DNA from: Candidatus Bathyarchaeia archaeon
Lineage (GTDB): Archaea; Thermoproteota; Bathyarchaeia; Bathyarchaeales; Bathycorpusculaceae
Direction: 5' to 3'
NCBI GenBank assembly: GCA_037481775.1
Contig: JBBFKZ010000017.1
Coordinates: forward strand, 1 to 30,841
DNA: 30,841 nucleotides
The notes beneath the pieces are model-generated. The model was given only the letters and a program-made list of their open reading frames with translations, had not been told where the DNA came from and did not search any database. The position numbers and the translations under genes were made by a program. Each line of letters opens with the position of its first letter. The first letter of the stretch is position 1. Of the stretch, positions 19,411 to 29,501 are shown in pieces.

Positions 19411-20289
19411 GTGAAAATCGGAATTGCAACCAGAAACATGGAAGCGTGGAGTAGCACGCAGCTTAGAGAAGCGCTGACTAAACGAGGCATCTCGTACGAG
19501 TGCTTCACTTTTCCGAAACTCGTCGCGCAGCTTGGACAAAAACCCTACTTCAAAGTCAATAACCTAAACTTGCTAGAAGATTTAGATGCCCTTATCATTC
19601 GCCCAATTGGCCGCGGCTCCCTGGAAGAAATAGTTTTCCGAATGGACATGCTCTACAAACTTGAACGCCATGGCTTTCTAGTAATAAACCCTGCAGAGGC
19701 CATAGAGCACTGCGTTGACAAATACGACATACTCGCCATTCTTGAAGATAATGGCGTACCCGTGCCGCGCACAGTGGTGACAGAAAGCGTAAATGAAGCC
19801 TTAAAAGCCTTTAAAGAGTTGGGCGGCGATGTTGTGGTTAAGCCGCTTTTCGGCTCCAGAGGTATAGGCGCAACACGCGTAGTAGACGCAGAAGTTGCAA
19901 ACACCGTCTTCAAAGCCATAACCTTTTCTCATGGCGTTATCTACATCCAAGAATTCGTGCCTCATGGAACATCAGACATCCGCGCATTCATTGTAGGCGG
20001 CCGTGTGATAGCAGCAATGCGCCGCGTAGCAGACAACTGGAAGACAAACTACAGTCAAGGTGCAAGACCGGTGCCCATAACTCTTGATTCAGCCCTTGAA
20101 GAGATAGCGGTTAAAGCGGCTAATGCGATAGGCTGCAAAATTGCAGGCGTCGACATACTTGAAGGCCCAGATGGACCAAAAATCTGTGACGTGAACAGTC
20201 AGCCAGGCTGGAAGGGGCTGCAGATGGTTACGAAAGTTAACATAGCCGACGAAATCGTCAACTACGTTTTGTCTGAATTAAAAAAGTAA
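19411..20289 (+). CDS. RimK-family ATP-grasp alpha-L-glutamate ligase (MptN/CofF/Orf5-like)
   Basis: VDKY, GVPVPRT, VVKPLFGSRGIG, IQEFV, DIRAFIVG, WKTNYSQG, GVDILE, VNSQPGW. Confidence 0.88.
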   Translation: MKIGIATRNMEAWSSTQLREALTKRGISYECFTFPKLVAQLGQKPYFKVNNLNLLEDLDALIIRPIGRGSLEEIVFRMDMLYKLERHGFLVINPAEAIEHCVDKYDILAILEDNGVPVPRTVVTESVNEALKAFKELGGDVVVKPLFGSRGIGATRVVDAEVANTVFKAITFSHGVIYIQEFVPHGTSDIRAFIVGGRVIAAMRRVADNWKTNYSQGARPVPITLDSALEEIAVKAANAIGCKIAGVDILEGPDGPKICDVNSQPGWKGLQMVTKVNIADEIVNYVLSELKK

Positions 20290-20291
20290 GA

Positions 20292-21086
20292 GTGGAAATA
20301 ATGCGCAGGCTGGAAATAACAAAATACGACCTCGCGACAAGGACCTCCAAAAAAATGGTGGATTACGTGGCAGAAGAGAAGCCATTGCACATATTTGTAA
20401 ACACTACTTACTGGGCAACAATACTCTGCTCACCATTAAATCTTAAGGAGATGGCAGTAGGGCACCTATTATCAGAGGGAATTCTAAAATCAACTGAAGA
20501 AATTAGGGAAGTAGAATTAAAAGAAAAAGAGGGAACATGCCACGTAAAACTGCAACCTGCAATAAACCTTGAGGAACGCTTAAGCCTCTCGAGACTTCAC
20601 CAACGCGTAGTAACCTCTGCATGCGGCGGGCAATCAATATATCAGTACCAACGAAAACCAGCAAAGGTAACCTCAAGCTTGACAGTGAAAGCTGACGTAC
20701 TCTTCAACGCCGTCAACCAGCTAAACTTTAAAGCGGAAGTTTTTAGACAAACCGGAGGCGTGCATGCGGCAGCCCTCTATACCGCCGACGGAGCCCTTGT
20801 GGCTATGGCTGAAGACGTCGGCAGACATAACGCGGTTGATAAGGTAATCGGTATGGCGGCGCTCAAGCAAACTTGCTTCAGCGAATGCTTTTTAGCATCT
20901 ACAGGGAGACTATCAGGCGACATAGTGTTCAAAGCCGCAAAGGTTGGTTTACCGATTGTGGCGTCCTTGGGCGCTGCGCTGGACTCCGGCGTCGACATGG
21001 CAGAAGCCGCAAACTTGACGTTAATCGGGTTTGTCCGCGGAAAACGTATGAACATTTACACTTTCGCGGAGAGAATTCTCTCGTAA
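20292..21086 (+). CDS. fdhD: FdhD-family sulfurtransferase for Mo/W-bis-PGD cofactor
   Basis: VAEEKPL, AVGHLLSEG, TGGVHAAA, EDVGRHNAVDKVIG, TGRLSGDIVFKA, LIGFVRG. Confidence 0.93.
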   Translation: MEIMRRLEITKYDLATRTSKKMVDYVAEEKPLHIFVNTTYWATILCSPLNLKEMAVGHLLSEGILKSTEEIREVELKEKEGTCHVKLQPAINLEERLSLSRLHQRVVTSACGGQSIYQYQRKPAKVTSSLTVKADVLFNAVNQLNFKAEVFRQTGGVHAAALYTADGALVAMAEDVGRHNAVDKVIGMAALKQTCFSECFLASTGRLSGDIVFKAAKVGLPIVASLGAALDSGVDMAEAANLTLIGFVRGKRMNIYTFAERILS

Positions 21087-22066
21087 GGATCAACGGCAAC
21101 TTGTGGAAAAGGCGTTGCCTTACCATTTCTTACGAGAAGGCGATTTTTGCTTTTAGTGAAAACACCTAAAAAACTCGCAAATAAACCGTTTTCACGTAAA
21201 ACTTTTTCCACAAGCTCTTTAGCTTGAGCATCCACAGCCGCTATAACTAGGCCAGTTGAAGACATCGACAAAACCTGCTCATCTGAAAGCTGAAAAGTAT
21301 CTTGCAACTTTCGCACTTCCGGGCTTATTGGAATTTTTTCGAAAACCACATTAAAACCTAAGTCTGAGGCAAGGGCTATCTCATTGAGCGCAGCCACTAA
21401 GCCGCCTTCGGTGGCATCATGCATGGCATGAACAAAGCCTGTCTTAGCAAGCTGTAAAACTTCCCTCACGCAACTCTGCATGCGCATAAGCCCAGAAAGT
21501 TTTTCAGCTTGCGCGGCGCCAAATAACCTCTGCGCCAAAGCCTTATGCGTCAACGAAAAGTTGGCGAGAATTTCTAAGCCAATTTGCTTAGTGCATAAAA
21601 TTAGGTCTTCGGCTTTAGCATTTGCTGGCGTAATTAACTGATGTTTCTCCACGGGGCCATATGCGGTGCAGACGCCTACTAATTCTGATAAGCCAGCATA
21701 CATGCCAGTATGCCCAGTTACGATGGCAATTCCTAATTCATCAGCAGCACTGCACACTTGCTCCATAGCCACTTGAAGAACCTGCGGCTCGGCAGATGAC
21801 GGCGCAAGCAGGTTAATTGTACAGAATTCTGGCTTCGCCCCGAAAAGCGCCACGTCGGAAGCTGCATAATTGATTAGTAGCCAACCGAACCATTCTCTGG
21901 GAACGCCGATGCATGGGTCGGTGGAAACAACCATGTATTTATCGCCTAGTAGGTGCACGCCTGAATCGAAGCCTGGAAAAGGCGGCACGATCACTCGAGG
22001 GTCTCTTTTTATGCAGCTTAAAAGTTTTTGAAGCTCATCTAGCCCAAGTTTGCCCATGGACTTCAT
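21056..22066 (-). CDS. AIR synthase-related (PurM/HypE/ThiL-fold) protein
   Basis: GFDSGV, VVSTDP, AASDVALFGAKP, IVTGHT, AMHDATEGGL. ATGA overlap with the upstream ATPase gene. Confidence 0.85.
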   Translation of the reverse strand: MKSMGKLGLDELQKLLSCIKRDPRVIVPPFPGFDSGVHLLGDKYMVVSTDPCIGVPREWFGWLLINYAASDVALFGAKPEFCTINLLAPSSAEPQVLQVAMEQVCSAADELGIAIVTGHTGMYAGLSELVGVCTAYGPVEKHQLITPANAKAEDLILCTKQIGLEILANFSLTHKALAQRLFGAAQAEKLSGLMRMQSCVREVLQLAKTGFVHAMHDATEGGLVAALNEIALASDLGFNVVFEKIPISPEVRKLQDTFQLSDEQVLSMSSTGLVIAAVDAQAKELVEKVLRENGLFASFLGVFTKSKNRLLVRNGKATPFPQVAVDPYERILSAKV

Positions 22067-22785
22067 GAACCTTTAGTTTTCTCTAGCATCTCTATGCCTC
22101 TGTGGGTTATTTTGAAGGGAATCCAACCTAACGGGTGCTCGCAGCCCTCCATTTTGACGATGCGCATTTCGCGTTGAAGGGTTTCTTCGTTAAAGCGGAA
22201 AAAGAATATGTTGTGCGCTTTATTCAAGTCGAGGTCGGTGGCTCGCTGCGTTGCGAGGTCTTTTTGTGTCGCGGCAGTCATTATATCAATGTTGACAATG
22301 TTATCATAATGAGACCAGTTTATTGTCCAGTCCTCGAGAAGCTCAGCATATTTCAAGTCGTAAAGGGAGAAAAGTTGTTCGCTGAAGTCTCCTGCAGCAA
22401 ATCGCGTCACTTGATTAGCAGAGATTAGGAATTTGTCGATACGCTTCATCTCCTCAAAATCGTCAAGACTGAAGTATGTTACGCGCGGATCTTTCGGAAA
22501 AGTACTGAAATGTGGAAAAGCTTGAATAGCAATGAATTTGCCCTCGTCGATGTATGGTCCAATGTTCCATCCAAAGGATTTGAAATACGCTATCAACCGT
22601 GGAAAAGGTTTGTCCATGACATCGTAAGCTACGGTTTCGCCTTGCTGAAGCCCTTGCCAAAGGAACTGCATGGCGAAAACGGTCTTTCCTGTTCCTGGCG
22701 GTCCGTAAAGAATGTTGCGAGAGCCTGATTCTATTCCGCCACCGATTAGTTCATCAAGCCCCTTTATTCCAGTTTTAAGCTTCAT
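22063..22785 (-). CDS. KaiC/RAD55-like RecA-superfamily ATPase, single domain, degenerate catalytic motifs
   Basis: KTGIKGLDELIGGG, Walker A GPPGTGKT, C-terminal RIVKMEG.EH...IPFKITHRGI. Confidence 0.85.
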   Translation of the reverse strand: MKLKTGIKGLDELIGGGIESGSRNILYGPPGTGKTVFAMQFLWQGLQQGETVAYDVMDKPFPRLIAYFKSFGWNIGPYIDEGKFIAIQAFPHFSTFPKDPRVTYFSLDDFEEMKRIDKFLISANQVTRFAAGDFSEQLFSLYDLKYAELLEDWTINWSHYDNIVNIDIMTAATQKDLATQRATDLDLNKAHNIFFFRFNEETLQREMRIVKMEGCEHPLGWIPFKITHRGIEMLEKTKGS

Positions 22786-22801
22786 TCTTTATTTCTCCAT
22801 T

Positions 22802-23350
22802 TTAAAGGTAAATGCTCAACGCTTTGCTCTTCTGCAGAAGGTAGACGATTATGCCGCTGACAACAAGTTCGGGAACAAGGTAGCTTCCATTATACACTGC
22901 AGAGTACACGTATGGATTCAGCTCTGGAGCATACAATGGCGCCCAATAGACCACGCCAGCCACGAAATGCATTATAAAACGGCCTATGATGCCGGCGGCA
23001 GCGCCAAGTACAGGCTGCTTTTTAGTCCAACCAGCAACGCCTAGGATGCCGAAAGCTAGCGGGTAGTCCAGCAGCATCTGCACTGGATTAAGGAAATAGG
23101 GTTGGATAGCAAATTGTATTAAGCCGTATACTGCGCCTGCAAACAAGCCTACTTTTGGTCCCCGCCTAAGTGCAAGCCAAATGATCGGCACCATCGAGCC
23201 GGCAGTTATCGAGCCGCCTTGGGGCAAAGTATAGACTATTATGAAACTCAACGCGGTTGCCAACGCTACAAATATGGCGATTTCAGCCAATACCTTAGCT
23301 GCAACTTTATGTTCATTTATAGAAGTAGATTCACTTTTGTTCGCATTCAT
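22802..23350 (-). CDS. thiT: Thiamine ECF transporter S component ThiT
   Basis: LAEIAIFVALA, LPQGGSIT, RRGPKVG, PVQMLLDY, HFVAGVVYW, YSAVYNGSY. ATG 23350 follows the riboswitch; the track start at 23389 falls inside the aptamer. Confidence 0.93.
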   Translation of the reverse strand: MNANKSESTSINEHKVAAKVLAEIAIFVALATALSFIIVYTLPQGGSITAGSMVPIIWLALRRGPKVGLFAGAVYGLIQFAIQPYFLNPVQMLLDYPLAFGILGVAGWTKKQPVLGAAAGIIGRFIMHFVAGVVYWAPLYAPELNPYVYSAVYNGSYLVPELVVSGIIVYLLQKSKALSIYL

Positions 23351-23351
23351 G

Positions 23352-23449
23352 TTTTTTCCCTCCGCCAGTATTATCTGGTTCAGGTTCAAAGGGTCGACAG
23401 CGATTCAGCCGTCCTCTCAGCCGGGTCACAGCCCAGCTCCCCTAAACCT
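23352..23449 (-). promoter_or_regulatory. TPP riboswitch (THI element)
   Basis: Minus strand reads GTTTAGGGGAGCTGGGCTGTGACCCGGCTGAGAGGACGGCTGAATCGCTGTCGACCCTTTGAACCTGAACCAGATAATACTGGCGGAGGGAAAAAA. Conserved GGGG..GC, CTGAGA, ACCC, ACCTGA, TAAT and GCG.AGGGA elements with pairing stems, directly upstream of thiT. Confidence 0.95.
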
Positions 23450-23522
23450 TGCTTGGGGATAATGTTATTTAGTTGTATTTTAATTTTCCTAAAGTCTATA
23501 ATGCAATGGAGAAAATCGGGAG

Positions 23523-25985
23523 ATGCAACCTCTGCCTAAAGAATATAAGTTCACCGAGATCGAGCGGAAGTGGCAACAGAAATGGGAAGAAATGGGTATA
23601 TACCGCTTCGACTGGAACGACACAGCACGACCAGTTTTTAGTATTGACACTCCGCCACCATATCCCTCCGGTGAATTCCACATGGGCAACGTCTTGAATT
23701 GGACGTACTTTGACGCAGTAGCCAGGTACAAGCGTATGCGCGGCTACAACGTGCTTTTTCCGCAAGGCTGGGACTGTCATGGATTAAGCATCGAAGTACA
23801 AGTAGAGAAAATGAATAACATTCGAAAGCGTGATGTGCCGCCAGACCAGTTCCGCAAGTGGTGCGAGCAGCTTGTAGAGAAATATATTGCCATGATGAAA
23901 GAAGGCATTTTAAAGCTTGGCTGCAGCGTGGACTGGACTACCGAGTACCGTACAATGGATCCGGACTATTGGCGGCGCACGCAGCTCAGCTTCATACTTC
24001 TGTATAAAAAGGGGTACATTTACCAGGGAACGCATCCAGTAAACTGGTGTCCACGTTGTGAAACAGCAATAGCAGATGCAGAGGTGGACTACGAAAAAAG
24101 GCAAGGCATACTTCATTATATTCGTTTTCTACTGGAAGGCAGCAGTGAATACTTGCTTATTGCCACCACGCGACCAGAATTTATTCCCGCTTGTGTAGCT
24201 GTCGAAGTTAACCCAGAAGACCAGCGCTTCACCAAGTACATCGGTAAAAACATCGTGGTTCCACTTGTCAACCGCCCTGTTCAAGTTATCGGAGAGGAAG
24301 CTGTGGATCCCGCTTTCGGCACAGGCGTCGTTATGATTTGCACTTACGGAGACAAAGAAGACGTAAAAACGGTCATCAAACATAAGCTGCCGGTTATCAA
24401 ACTTTTAACTGAGAACGGAAGAATAAATGAGAACGGTGGCAAGTACGCAGGCTTAACTATAAACCAAGCCAGAAAAGCCATAGTTGAAGACCTCGCCGCT
24501 GCGGGATTACTAGAGAAAACTGAGCAAATTGAACAGGAAGTCGGCGTGTGCGACCGCTGCAAAACACACGTAGAAATTCTCGAGCACAAGCAGTGGTTCA
24601 TGAAAACGCGCATACTAACCGACGCCGTGGAAAAAACCGCTAACGAGGTTGTATGGTATCCGGATTATATGAAAACACGACTGATTGACTGGGCGAAGTC
24701 TCTCGACTGGGATTGGGTCATTAGCCGCCAACGCGTATTTGCCACACCAATTCCTGTTTGGTATTGCAAAAACTGTGGTGAAGTAATACTCGCAGAAGAA
24801 ACATGGGTTCCAATAGACCCAAAGCTGGAAAACCCGAAAATTGGCAAATGCCCAAAATGCGGCGGCCGCGAGTTCACTCCCGAAAGCGACGTGTTTGATA
24901 CGTGGATGGATAGTTCAATAACATGTGCTGTGCACGCTGGCTGGCCAGACCGCAAAGATTGGCGAAGATTTTTCCCTGCTGACATGCATCCGTCAGGCAT
25001 AGACATCATCAGAACATGGGCATACTACCTGATGGTTAGGCACTTGGCATTGTTCGGCGAAACACCTTACAAGAGCTGCCTCATCAATGGCATGGTTCTC
25101 GGCTCAGATGGCAGAAAAATGAGCAAGTCACTTAAGAATTATGTTGCGGCACCCGAAGTTTTAGATAAGTATGGTGCAGACGCCACCCGCCAATGGGCTG
25201 CTGGAGGCGGCGCCACAGGCTCAGACATACCTTTCCGCTGGCCCGATGTGGAATATGGAAAACGCTTTCTCGTTAAACTTTGGAACGTTTCATGCTTCGC
25301 AAACAAGCTTTTAGCAGATTACAAACCTACAGAAGCTGAAGATGTAAAGCTGGAGCTATTGGACAAGTGGATTCTAAGCAAAGCTGAAAAGCTCACGCGA
25401 AAAGTAACTGAAGCATTTGAGAAATGCCAGTTCAACATTGCACTGGAAGAAATACGCAATTTCACATGGCATGTTCTCTGCGATTGCTACATAGAAGCAG
25501 TCAAAGATAGGCTTTACAGAGGAGAAATACATGGAGAAGCCAAAAAGGTAGCGGCACAGTATACGCTTTACGAAGTGTTATACCGTATTTTGCAGTTTCT
25601 TTCTCCGATAACACCGCATTTGACAGAGGAAATATATCAAGCCATGTATGCGGATAATAAAGGCTTTAAGAGCCTACAGGTTGCACCTTGGCCTGAATTT
25701 AAGCAGGAGTGTATTGATGAGACGGCGGAAAAACATGGAGACCTAATTATAGCAGTTATAACTTCGATCCGTAGAGAAAAAGCTGAAAAGCGGATGCCTC
25801 TGAATACACAAGTTAAGAAGTTGACAATTTACGCTGGAGATAAGGCAACAGCAGAGATAATCAGAGAAGGAGAAGGGGACCTAACAGGGACATGCAAAGT
25901 CTTAAATCTTGAAATTCTTGCAGAGAAAGGCAACGGCAGAGAAATCGATCAATACCCAGAAGTTCATTTTATAGCTGAATATTAA
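23523..25985 (+). CDS. valS: Valine--tRNA ligase (archaeal type)
   Basis: DTPPPYPSGEFHMGN (HIGH-like), WVISRQR, KMSKS, C-terminal anticodon-binding region. Confidence 0.96.
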   Translation: MQPLPKEYKFTEIERKWQQKWEEMGIYRFDWNDTARPVFSIDTPPPYPSGEFHMGNVLNWTYFDAVARYKRMRGYNVLFPQGWDCHGLSIEVQVEKMNNIRKRDVPPDQFRKWCEQLVEKYIAMMKEGILKLGCSVDWTTEYRTMDPDYWRRTQLSFILLYKKGYIYQGTHPVNWCPRCETAIADAEVDYEKRQGILHYIRFLLEGSSEYLLIATTRPEFIPACVAVEVNPEDQRFTKYIGKNIVVPLVNRPVQVIGEEAVDPAFGTGVVMICTYGDKEDVKTVIKHKLPVIKLLTENGRINENGGKYAGLTINQARKAIVEDLAAAGLLEKTEQIEQEVGVCDRCKTHVEILEHKQWFMKTRILTDAVEKTANEVVWYPDYMKTRLIDWAKSLDWDWVISRQRVFATPIPVWYCKNCGEVILAEETWVPIDPKLENPKIGKCPKCGGREFTPESDVFDTWMDSSITCAVHAGWPDRKDWRRFFPADMHPSGIDIIRTWAYYLMVRHLALFGETPYKSCLINGMVLGSDGRKMSKSLKNYVAAPEVLDKYGADATRQWAAGGGATGSDIPFRWPDVEYGKRFLVKLWNVSCFANKLLADYKPTEAEDVKLELLDKWILSKAEKLTRKVTEAFEKCQFNIALEEIRNFTWHVLCDCYIEAVKDRLYRGEIHGEAKKVAAQYTLYEVLYRILQFLSPITPHLTEEIYQAMYADNKGFKSLQVAPWPEFKQECIDETAEKHGDLIIAVITSIRREKAEKRMPLNTQVKKLTIYAGDKATAEIIREGEGDLTGTCKVLNLEILAEKGNGREIDQYPEVHFIAEY

Positions 25986-28811: not shown

Positions 28812-29501
28812 TTGTCCAACAAACGTGAATGGCAACATATCTACACGCTTATTAAACTAGCGGAGATGGGCGCTCACAGGCGAATCACAAAAACGTCAAC
28901 CGAATATTTGGCTGAGAAGCTGGAGATTTCCCAGCAGACATCATCTCGTTACTTGATAGAGCTTGAGCGCAAAGGTTGGATCCAGAGAACAGTAACTCCT
29001 GAAGGTAGCCTAATAAAAATCACCGATGAAGGCGCAAGAGAGCTACAAAAGCTATACGTTAACTTGAGATTTTTGCTAGAAGCAACTTACCCGCCCTCCA
29101 TTACCCTTGAAGGAACAGTCTTCACAGGTTTAGGTGAAGGCGCCTATTATATTCTAAAAGAGCCTTATAGACGGCAATTCATTGAAAAACTTGGATTTGA
29201 TCCCTACCCTGGCACACTCAACCTTAAGCTTACAACCGACTATGACCTTAAGGCGCGTGCAGAACTTGAAGCATACCCCGCTGTTGAAATTCAAGGATTC
29301 AAAAACGAAGATAGAACATTTGGGCTGGTTAAATGCTATCCCGCCAAAATAGATAACAAAGTCAAAGGTGCTTTGGTCTTTGCATTGCGCAGTCACTATG
29401 ACAAGTCGGTTTTAGAAGTAATTTCTCCAGTATACCTTAGAAAGCAACTTAACCTCAAGGACGGACATAAAGTGAAAGTAGAAATTTTCACTCTTCCATA
29501 G
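28812..29501 (+). CDS. ribK: CTP-dependent riboflavin kinase with N-terminal wHTH (RbkR-type)
   Basis: LAEKLEISQQTSSRYLIELE HTH; GLGEGAYY, PYPGTLN, LEVISPVYLR kinase motifs. Confidence 0.93.
   Translation: MSNKREWQHIYTLIKLAEMGAHRRITKTSTEYLAEKLEISQQTSSRYLIELERKGWIQRTVTPEGSLIKITDEGARELQKLYVNLRFLLEATYPPSITLEGTVFTGLGEGAYYILKEPYRRQFIEKLGFDPYPGTLNLKLTTDYDLKARAELEAYPAVEIQGFKNEDRTFGLVKCYPAKIDNKVKGALVFALRSHYDKSVLEVISPVYLRKQLNLKDGHKVKVEIFTLP

Follow-up and report, generated by a model that had tools for sequence, protein, structure and literature searches.

How does an archaeon that imports thiamine, yet in whose genome no known thiamine-phosphorylating enzyme is found, convert the vitamin into thiamine pyrophosphate (TPP)? 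The question is raised by a locus on a 30,841-nucleotide stretch of DNA (hereafter the window; positions 1 to 30,841 of contig JBBFKZ010000017.1, assembly GCA_037481775.1) from a Candidatus Bathyarchaeia archaeon. On its minus strand, a TPP riboswitch precedes thiT, the gene for the thiamine-specific S component of an energy-coupling factor (ECF) transporter, which is followed by genes for a KaiC-like protein and for an 'AIR synthase-related' protein of the PurM fold. We propose that the PurM-fold protein is a thiamine kinase (EC 2.7.1.89), which would convert thiamine to thiamine monophosphate (TMP) for subsequent phosphorylation by ThiL, as a non-orthologous replacement for ThiK or TPK. On the sequence evidence, this proposal earns marginally more belief than doubt. 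It is the best reading because of the tight and repeated linkage of the gene to thiT and the TPP riboswitch, combined with a thiamine-phosphorylating step that no known family supplies. To our knowledge, the phosphorylation of salvaged thiamine in archaea without TPK or ThiK is an open gap, and no report connecting AIR-synthase-like proteins with thiT or with the salvage of thiamine was found in the literature searched, subscription journals being outside its coverage.

All four elements were found on the minus strand at the coordinates given here. The riboswitch aptamer (23339..23453) matches RF00059 from 23453 to 23339 over the whole model (positions 1-105), with 67.1 bits against a Rfam gathering score of 54.3 (E 2.5e-11), and is the sole RF00059 match in the organism's own genome. 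A Shine-Dalgarno-like GGAGGG (23364-23359) lies within the 3' end of the aptamer, and the ATG of thiT (23350) follows 8 nt further on. In the minimum free energy fold of the region, the GGAGGGA run is partly paired (z -2.6), which fits a translational mechanism. The riboswitch looks translational and is seated on thiT, and TPP-dependent control is predicted from its position. The thiT gene itself (22802..23350) encodes a protein of 182 aa; a longer reading frame with a TTG start (23389) would begin inside the aptamer, and the homologues align from the ATG form.

A spacer of 16 nt, AATGGAGAAATAAAGA, which contains GGAG, separates the thiT stop codon from the ATG of the KaiC-like gene (22063..22785; 240 aa, KaiC/RecA fold), and the TGA of the latter overlaps the ATG of the PurM-fold gene (21056..22066; 336 aa) as ATGA. 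The first-pass annotation had described this layout, with thiT, the 16-bp gap bearing GGAG, the ATPase gene, the ATGA overlap and the PurM-fold gene behind the riboswitch, correctly in every detail. Translation of the KaiC-like and PurM-fold genes may be coupled, given the short spacer and the ATGA overlap, and we infer that the three genes are co-transcribed. An A/T-rich, TATA-like stretch, AAAATTAAAATACA (23474..23487, minus strand), read from the sequence about 27 nt 5' of the 5' end of the riboswitch, is a possible archaeal promoter, given the usual archaeal TATA spacing. A scan for bacterial-type promoters and terminators, which is inapplicable to archaeal promoters, stayed at the level of shuffled sequence (5 versus 3.4±1.8 and 3 versus 2.9±1.8, respectively).

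The need for a thiamine kinase emerges from the thiamine genes of the organism. Its genome, a Bathyarchaeia metagenome-assembled genome, is 96.7% complete, and the close relatives of all three operon proteins carry Bathyarchaeia labels. ThiT matches PF09515 (Thia_YuaJ) with 151 bits and TIGR02357 with 131.3 bits, above the equivalog cut-off of 108.45. Two CbiQ/EcfT genes lie elsewhere in the genome (149.9 and 123.8 bits), and it is on EcfT that the availability of an ECF module was judged. A true ThiL is also encoded elsewhere (270 bits versus the cut-off of 184 for TIGR01379), as is a true HypE (365 bits). None of ThiC, Thi4, ThiD, ThiE, ThiN, TPK (TIGR01378) and ThiK (TIGR02721) was found by searching this 96.7% complete genome; the searches for Thi4, ThiE and ThiD gave weak partial matches alone, far under the cut-offs. 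Given that ThiC, Thi4, ThiD, ThiE and ThiN were not found and that ThiT is present, the organism appears unable to make TMP de novo and to import thiamine instead. ThiL is retained, yet none of the known enzymes that would take thiamine to TMP or to TPP was found. Since ThiL is useful only with TMP formed from the imported thiamine, this gap in the pathway calls for a thiamine-phosphorylating enzyme. The PurM-fold protein had been put forward as a thiamine or thiamine-precursor kinase, and the first half of this suggestion is supported by the linkage and the pathway gap. The second half is rejected for this genome: a kinase for hydroxymethylpyrimidine (HMP) or hydroxyethylthiazole (HET) would have no use here, since neither ThiE nor ThiN, which would couple the precursors, was found. 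In other genomes, a paralogous subfamily that is fused to ThiN may fill such a precursor-kinase role.

To follow the linkage in other organisms, we ran the neighbourhood search that the first-pass annotation had called for, in a locus scan with one genome per species, in which the best 80 of 165 relatives' loci were analysed. thiT lies directly upstream of the PurM-fold ortholog, on the same strand, in 72 of the 80 loci. Six others are cut by a contig end before the thiT position (L018, L027, L037, L051, L052 and L066, of which L052 holds a thiT fragment), and riboswitch and thiT thus stand directly upstream of the PurM-fold gene in 72 of the 74 informative loci. thiT was not found at the remaining two of the 80, L079 and L084. 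A profile made from the window aptamer detects an element abutting the thiT start in all 72 thiT-bearing loci and in none of the eight others. With Infernal and RF00059, 48 of 50 related genomes were matched (46 of 50 above the cut-off), exactly one match being present in 46 of the 48; the two genomes without RF00059 are those of L079 and L084. At these two loci, the ortholog is preceded by a multi-span protein of 194-196 aa, which is 25% identical (E 3e-5) to a PF07155-type ECF S component, and it faces a TPP-dependent 2-oxoacid:ferredoxin oxidoreductase. The order riboswitch, thiT, KaiC-like gene (where present) and PurM-fold gene is common to the 72 loci, and its recurrence is more than chance. 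Two loci show a separate peculiarity: immediately upstream of riboswitch and thiT, a PIN/MazE-type toxin-antitoxin pair has been inserted (L025:2994-3863 and L039:4290-5158). It is bordered by a second, weaker copy of the TPP element, and the insertion thus looks to have duplicated the riboswitch.

Might this linkage be inherited synteny with no functional tie, the downstream genes being unrelated to thiamine and having their own expression signals? The close orthologues in genome records almost all carry Bathyarchaeia labels, and the flanks, comprising an aminoacyl-tRNA synthetase gene, orf251, an MptN-like gene and fdhD, are conserved too, as mere inheritance would predict. However, the genes stay on one strand, overlapping or 4-40 nt apart, in loci whose proteins have diverged to 58-82% identity, and flanking genes such as fdhD vary among the loci while thiT and the PurM-fold gene remain paired. 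The KaiC-like gene, moreover, occurs at no other place in 50 genomes. With the phyletic and paralogue evidence below, these observations leave a tie-free linkage very improbable.

The phyletic pattern was examined in 151 Bathyarchaeia genomes with a completeness of at least 85%, using a family profile that splits the orthologues (421-624 bits; cut >420) from the paralogues (139-199 bits). The PurM-fold ortholog is present in 35 of the 151 genomes and thiT in 85. All 35 ortholog genomes have thiT, on the same contig and right beside the ortholog in 34 (the exception is G035). TPK occurs in a single genome of the 151, versus ThiL in 137 (E<=1e-45) and thiT in 85, which makes the missing thiamine-phosphorylating step a class-wide question; among the ortholog genomes, 31 of 35 have ThiL. 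ThiN was found in 81 genomes and ThiE in four. When these tables were cross-tabulated, a TMP synthase (ThiN or ThiE) was present in 1 of 35 ortholog genomes (G050) versus 83 of the 116 others, and within the thiT-bearing genomes the ortholog was present in 34 of 55 without ThiN versus 1 of 30 with ThiN; as the sampled genomes share kinship and are not independent, these contrasts are given as counts without a statistic. The same opposition recurs within families. In family f1, G008 and G066 have ThiN and G060 has ThiE, and all three are without thiT and the ortholog. In genus g19 of family f5, three genomes have thiT and the ortholog without a synthase, and G123 has ThiE and neither thiT nor the ortholog. 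Family f2 (G041 versus the rest) and family f20 (G067 versus the rest) repeat the contrast. The thiT/PurM-fold pair is thus gained or lost jointly and opposite to the TMP synthases, which again argues against synteny inherited without function.

What kind of enzyme is the PurM-fold protein? Both domains of the fold were recognized (PF00586, 46.4 bits versus a gathering score of 24; PF02769, 71.4 versus 23.1). Against the curated cut-offs of the named families, it scores 83.7/184.15 for ThiL (TIGR01379), 82.7/125 for SelD (TIGR00476), 75/251.6 for HypE (TIGR02124) and 41/236 for PurM, and hence falls below all of them, with ThiL as the best NCBIfam match. HypE is marked by a C-terminal Cys that carries the cyanide precursor, and SelD by a Cys or Sec in an N-terminal glycine-rich loop. 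The C-terminus of the PurM-fold protein (...RILSAKV) is without Cys, and its N-terminus (MKSMGKLGL) has a Lys with no Cys before it and no Sec. Phylogenetically, 26 'AIR synthase-related' sequences group as a single clade (SH-aLRT 98) that excludes the ThiL and HypE of the same genome; this is a quick tree, with the ThiL and HypE outgroups on long branches, and should be read cautiously. The cut-offs of the hidden Markov models, the motifs and the tree therefore led us to reject ThiL, HypE, SelD and PurM as identities of the protein. Many database records label the family HypE, HupF or hydrogenase maturation factor, and the names given in the Protein Atlas are merely a generic 'HypE family'. 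Given the score of 75 against 251.6, the missing C-terminal Cys and the true HypE elsewhere in the genome, the HypE name is a misannotation.

The fold itself is well predicted. The closest solved sequence, by sequence profile, is HypE (E 1e-17), and a model built with 63 relatives has a predicted local distance difference test score of 96.6. Its fold matches are about equal to HypE (template modelling (TM) score 0.74-0.83), to ThiL (TM 0.66-0.77) and to SelD, and all of the top folds belong to the PurM superfamily. D34, D50, D71, H119, E165, D217, G221 and G222 are invariant across 63 diverse relatives, and the mean column identity of the alignment is 72%; the invariant columns fit a working ATP site. 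Relatives outside Bathyarchaeia were detected in Hodarchaeota (406 bits), Promethearchaeota and Hermodarchaeota (305), Asgardarchaeia (260) and Thermococcus (218); there are Bacillota relatives as well. A metagenome scan with a Promethearchaeota query returned best loci with 43-45% identity, which were mostly Bathyarchaeia-type orthologues or distant paralogues. Among the Protein Atlas structural neighbours are also bacterial (Thermodesulfobacteriota) clusters that combine AIRS domains with a haloacid dehalogenase (HAD)-family hydrolase domain in one fusion protein.

These family comparisons bear on a different placement of the enzyme in the same pathway. The PurM-fold protein could act on imported thiamine compounds by another step, either as a second TMP kinase, dedicated to salvage and acting on imported TMP, or as a pyrophosphokinase-like enzyme that forms TPP directly, with ATP cleavage of the SelD type. 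The ThiL model is its best NCBIfam match (83.7 bits), and the conversion of a phosphate to a diphosphate is established chemistry for the fold. SelD employs an N-terminal Lys and breaks ATP down to AMP; in the PurM-fold protein, G5-K6 at the N-terminus is nearly invariant, and the SelD model aligns from residue 6. The linkage and the phyletic evidence fit such a step as well as they fit a thiamine kinase. However, a full-scoring ThiL is present in the genome itself and in 31 of the 35 ortholog genomes, so that a second TMP kinase would be redundant, and an enzyme forming TPP directly would make ThiL dispensable. The PurM-fold protein also lies outside the ThiL clade and far under the ThiL cut-off. 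We therefore consider this other step unlikely, and retain thiamine kinase as the preferred assignment.

Several facts nevertheless weigh against a thiamine kinase. The riboswitch sits on thiT, and its control over the downstream genes is an assumption. In the PurM-fold enzymes known to us, the group that is phosphorylated is a carbonyl or amide oxygen, a phosphate, or selenide; an alcohol acceptor would be without precedent in the fold. Besides thiamine, ThiT can bind TMP and TPP, and TMP could thus enter the cell directly. The close orthologues all belong to one class with conserved flanking synteny, and inheritance could explain part of the linkage. Finally, the ortholog was not found in 21 of the 55 sampled genomes with thiT and without ThiN, and in one genome, G090 (L107), thiT stands in the same synteny without it. 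The PurM-fold ortholog is therefore not the sole solution. In at least three of these 21 genomes, thiT has a different PurM-fold gene as its neighbour, and in one an APH-family kinase is encoded close by.

We also inspected the thiT neighbourhoods of 20 genomes that lack the ortholog. At L097 and L112, RF00059 and thiT are followed by a type II PurM-fold gene (349-353 aa, 28-31% identical), while at L099 and L100 a PurM-fold gene of 313 aa immediately precedes the riboswitch and thiT. At L106, RF00059 and thiT are accompanied by an S-component-like gene, a PurM-fold::ThiN fusion of 482 aa and a methyltransferase gene, in this order. At L104 and L093, an S-component-like gene, PurM-fold and ThiN parts (fused or split) and a methyltransferase gene have their own RF00059 and lie beside a second RF00059 with thiT. 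The PurM-fold::ThiN fusions (477-482 aa) or adjacent split genes are located at L104:5276-6709 (minus strand), L106:1783-3231 (minus) and L093:1739-3173 (plus). L094 has the classical ThiDN-TenA arrangement. At L103 (1964-3751, minus), in a genome without the ortholog, genes for an aminoglycoside phosphotransferase (APH)-family phosphotransferase and a P-loop kinase are divergent to and adjoin the riboswitch and thiT. The APH family has the fold of E. coli ThiK, and this arrangement may be another solution to the thiamine phosphorylation step. In the remaining nine inspected loci, nothing thiamine-related was found beside thiT.

In the tree, the thiT- and ThiN-linked paralogues form two further subclades (support 95 and 100), both of which lie in RF00059-controlled operons: one is the type II form, and the other, whose members are fused to ThiN or lie next to it, makes up a clade of its own on a long branch. 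Three paralogous subfamilies have thus been placed independently in TPP-riboswitch operons, a further point against linkage by inheritance alone. ThiD was not found in any of the 11 genomes whose only ThiN is PurM-linked, but was found in all four control genomes with ThiDN. Judging by this contrast, the PurM-fold domain of the ThiN-fused subfamily seems to take the place of ThiD, and the subfamily may be a PurM-fold analogue of ThiDN.

A fourth subclade has a different partner. It includes a paralogue from the genome under study (L002:1405-2412, 335 aa, with a sub-threshold HypE score of 124 bits), which is directly preceded by a PF07155 ECF S component (109.9 bits), the pair occupying L002:824-2412 on contig C3 at about 142.9-144.5 kb. 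The same pairing was found in all four informative metagenome loci (L170, L176, L178 and L189). Among 19 sampled Bathyarchaeia loci of the paralogue, a small S-component-like membrane protein adjoins it in 12 (eight recognized by BLAST), and none was found in the other seven. A riboflavin kinase role for this PF07155-paired paralogue is less likely, because the genome has two genes for CTP-dependent riboflavin kinase.

These pairings, together with the S-component-like protein in front of the ortholog at L079 and L084, where no riboswitch is found, raise the possibility that the common denominator of the clade is an S component rather than thiamine. The PurM-fold protein would then be an ATP-using accessory of S components or would act on a substrate other than thiamine, for instance by modifying another imported micronutrient, by repairing a damaged thiamine derivative, or by gating or energising ThiT. 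On the other hand, the two EcfT genes mean that an ECF energising module is already available, and the columns that characterize the metal and ATP sites of PurM-fold enzymes do not vary. Two further observations point to chemistry on thiamine moieties, not to generic transport: the ortholog is anti-correlated with TMP synthases, and PurM-fold domains are fused to ThiN where no ThiD was found. An accessory or non-thiamine role is accordingly quite unlikely in our judgement.

The subfamilies can also be brought together in a wider, tentative picture, which we hold to be doubtful as a whole: the entire archaeal 'AIR synthase-related / HypE-like' clade would be a family of PurM-fold vitamin-moiety kinases that work with ECF S components. 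Within it, the thiT-linked branch, in Bathyarchaeia with sisters in Hodarchaeota and Promethearchaeota, may be the missing archaeal thiamine kinase, the ThiN-fused branch may replace ThiD as a PurM::ThiN analogue of ThiDN, and the PF07155-paired branch may trap another micronutrient. The catalytically degenerate KaiC-like protein may be a nucleotide-sensing adaptor between transporter and kinase.

What, then, does the KaiC-like protein contribute? It matches PF06745 with 112.5 bits (gathering score 26.6) and has a Walker A motif (GPPGTGKT), but falls below all of the NCBIfam KaiC cut-offs; its best matches are the KaiC CI domain (E 1.7e-25) and PH0284. E77 and E78 of KaiC CI form the catalytic glutamate pair. 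In the alignment, this Glu-Glu pair corresponds to Met57-Asp58 of the KaiC-like protein, and among 26 relatives Asp58 is replaced by Asn in two and the Walker A Lys by Arg in four. The mean column identity is 80%, versus 72% for the PurM-fold set. The gene is present in 30 of the 80 loci and absent from 50. Mapped on the PurM-fold ortholog tree (31 present, 46 absent), its presence requires at least five changes and is not confined to one side of the deepest split; one old gain followed by several losses is possible. Where 50 genomes were searched, a KaiC-like ortholog (82-95% identical) was found in 14, which are exactly those with the gene at the locus, always there and in single copy; none was found in the remaining 36 at E<=1e-20.

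The absence from 50 of 80 loci, the loss of the catalytic Glu and the change of the Walker A Lys to Arg indicate that the KaiC-like protein is not a required partner and is probably not an active ATPase. It is probably an operon-exclusive, dispensable accessory that binds nucleotide but does not hydrolyse it. Of the partner or regulator that had been envisaged at the outset, an attachment to this operon alone is upheld by its distribution, and an obligatory partnership is not. For the further idea of a sensing module, nothing beyond the riboswitch itself speaks in support.

Taken together, the operon can be pictured as the thiamine salvage unit of a thiamine-auxotrophic Bathyarchaeon. At low TPP, the aptamer would not be closed over the Shine-Dalgarno-like run and the start codon, and ThiT would be made. 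With the shared ECF module, ThiT would import thiamine, which the PurM-fold enzyme would convert to TMP with ATP, trapping the vitamin in the cell, and the separately encoded ThiL would then form TPP from TMP. The KaiC-like protein would act as a lineage-specific, dispensable accessory, such as an adaptor or modulator.

The analysis narrows the gap in thiamine phosphorylation to one conserved riboswitch-linked gene. If the thiamine kinase assignment is true, phosphorylation of an alcohol would be new chemistry for the PurM superfamily, and a widespread misannotation as 'HypE / hydrogenase maturation factor' would be corrected. Vitamin B1 auxotrophy and cross-feeding could be better predicted for the Bathyarchaeia and Asgard archaea of sediments and hot springs. 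The assignment would also provide a first functional handle on the KaiC-like orphan and, more widely, on the PurM-fold genes that pair with ECF S components.

The genes around the operon deserve a brief description. On the plus strand, fdhD (20292-21086; TIGR00129, 219 bits) converges with the PurM-fold gene, and their 3' ends overlap by 31 nt (21056-21086), which leaves no space for a terminator between the two. Upstream of fdhD lies a gene for a RimK-type ATP-grasp ligase (19411-20289, plus strand), whose best match is the tetrahydromethanopterin:alpha-L-glutamate ligase MptN, with 284 bits, under that model's cut-off of 350; the MptN-like gene adjoins the operon in most of the related loci. 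On the opposite side, only 70 nt beyond the riboswitch's 5' end, a gene for a class I aminoacyl-tRNA synthetase (820 aa; 23523-25985, plus strand) begins on the other strand, and the two divergent units therefore have a very short common intergenic region. Farther along the window, a CTP-dependent riboflavin kinase domain (PF01982, 149 bits) is encoded at 29118-29486 (plus strand), and a second copy lies on contig C9.

Among known systems, ThiL (TIGR01379) is the nearest in pathway: it has the same fold (TM 0.66-0.77), the same two Pfam domains and an ATP-dependent phosphorylation such as we expect here. Unlike ThiL, the PurM-fold protein scores 83.7 against a cut-off of 184, falls into a separate clade and would act on the alcohol of thiamine rather than the phosphate of TMP. 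In its proposed role, the phosphorylation of salvaged thiamine, it resembles ThiK (E. coli, APH fold) and TPK/Thi80, and the ThiK-then-ThiL route would be the same; its fold, however, is unrelated to either. HypE is the closest solved relative (2z1e, 3vys), by profile (E 1e-17) as well as by fold (TM 0.74-0.83), but the PurM-fold protein differs in its score (75 versus 251.6 bits), in lacking the C-terminal cysteine and in coexisting with a true HypE elsewhere in the genome. As in ThiDN, one paralogous subfamily has its PurM-fold domain N-terminal to ThiN, in the position that ThiD takes in ThiDN, whereas the PurM-fold protein of the window stands alone in a genome without detected ThiN. The KaiC-like protein shares the RecA/KaiC fold and Walker A motif with KaiC CI and with single-domain archaeal KaiC-like proteins (ArlH/FlaH, PH0284 and SSO2452). 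It departs from KaiC in having Met-Asp for Glu-Glu, in the Walker A Arg of 4 of 26 relatives and in being sited only between thiT and the PurM-fold gene. Finally, vitamin transporter genes are often co-located with a kinase that traps the vitamin (PMC5749112), the PnuT-TPK pairs among them. Like those pairs, our locus places a vitamin transporter gene next to a candidate phosphorylating enzyme, here also often under a TPP riboswitch. In contrast to them, the transporter is an ECF S component, and hence a part of active transport, rather than a Pnu facilitator, and the candidate enzyme is of the PurM fold.

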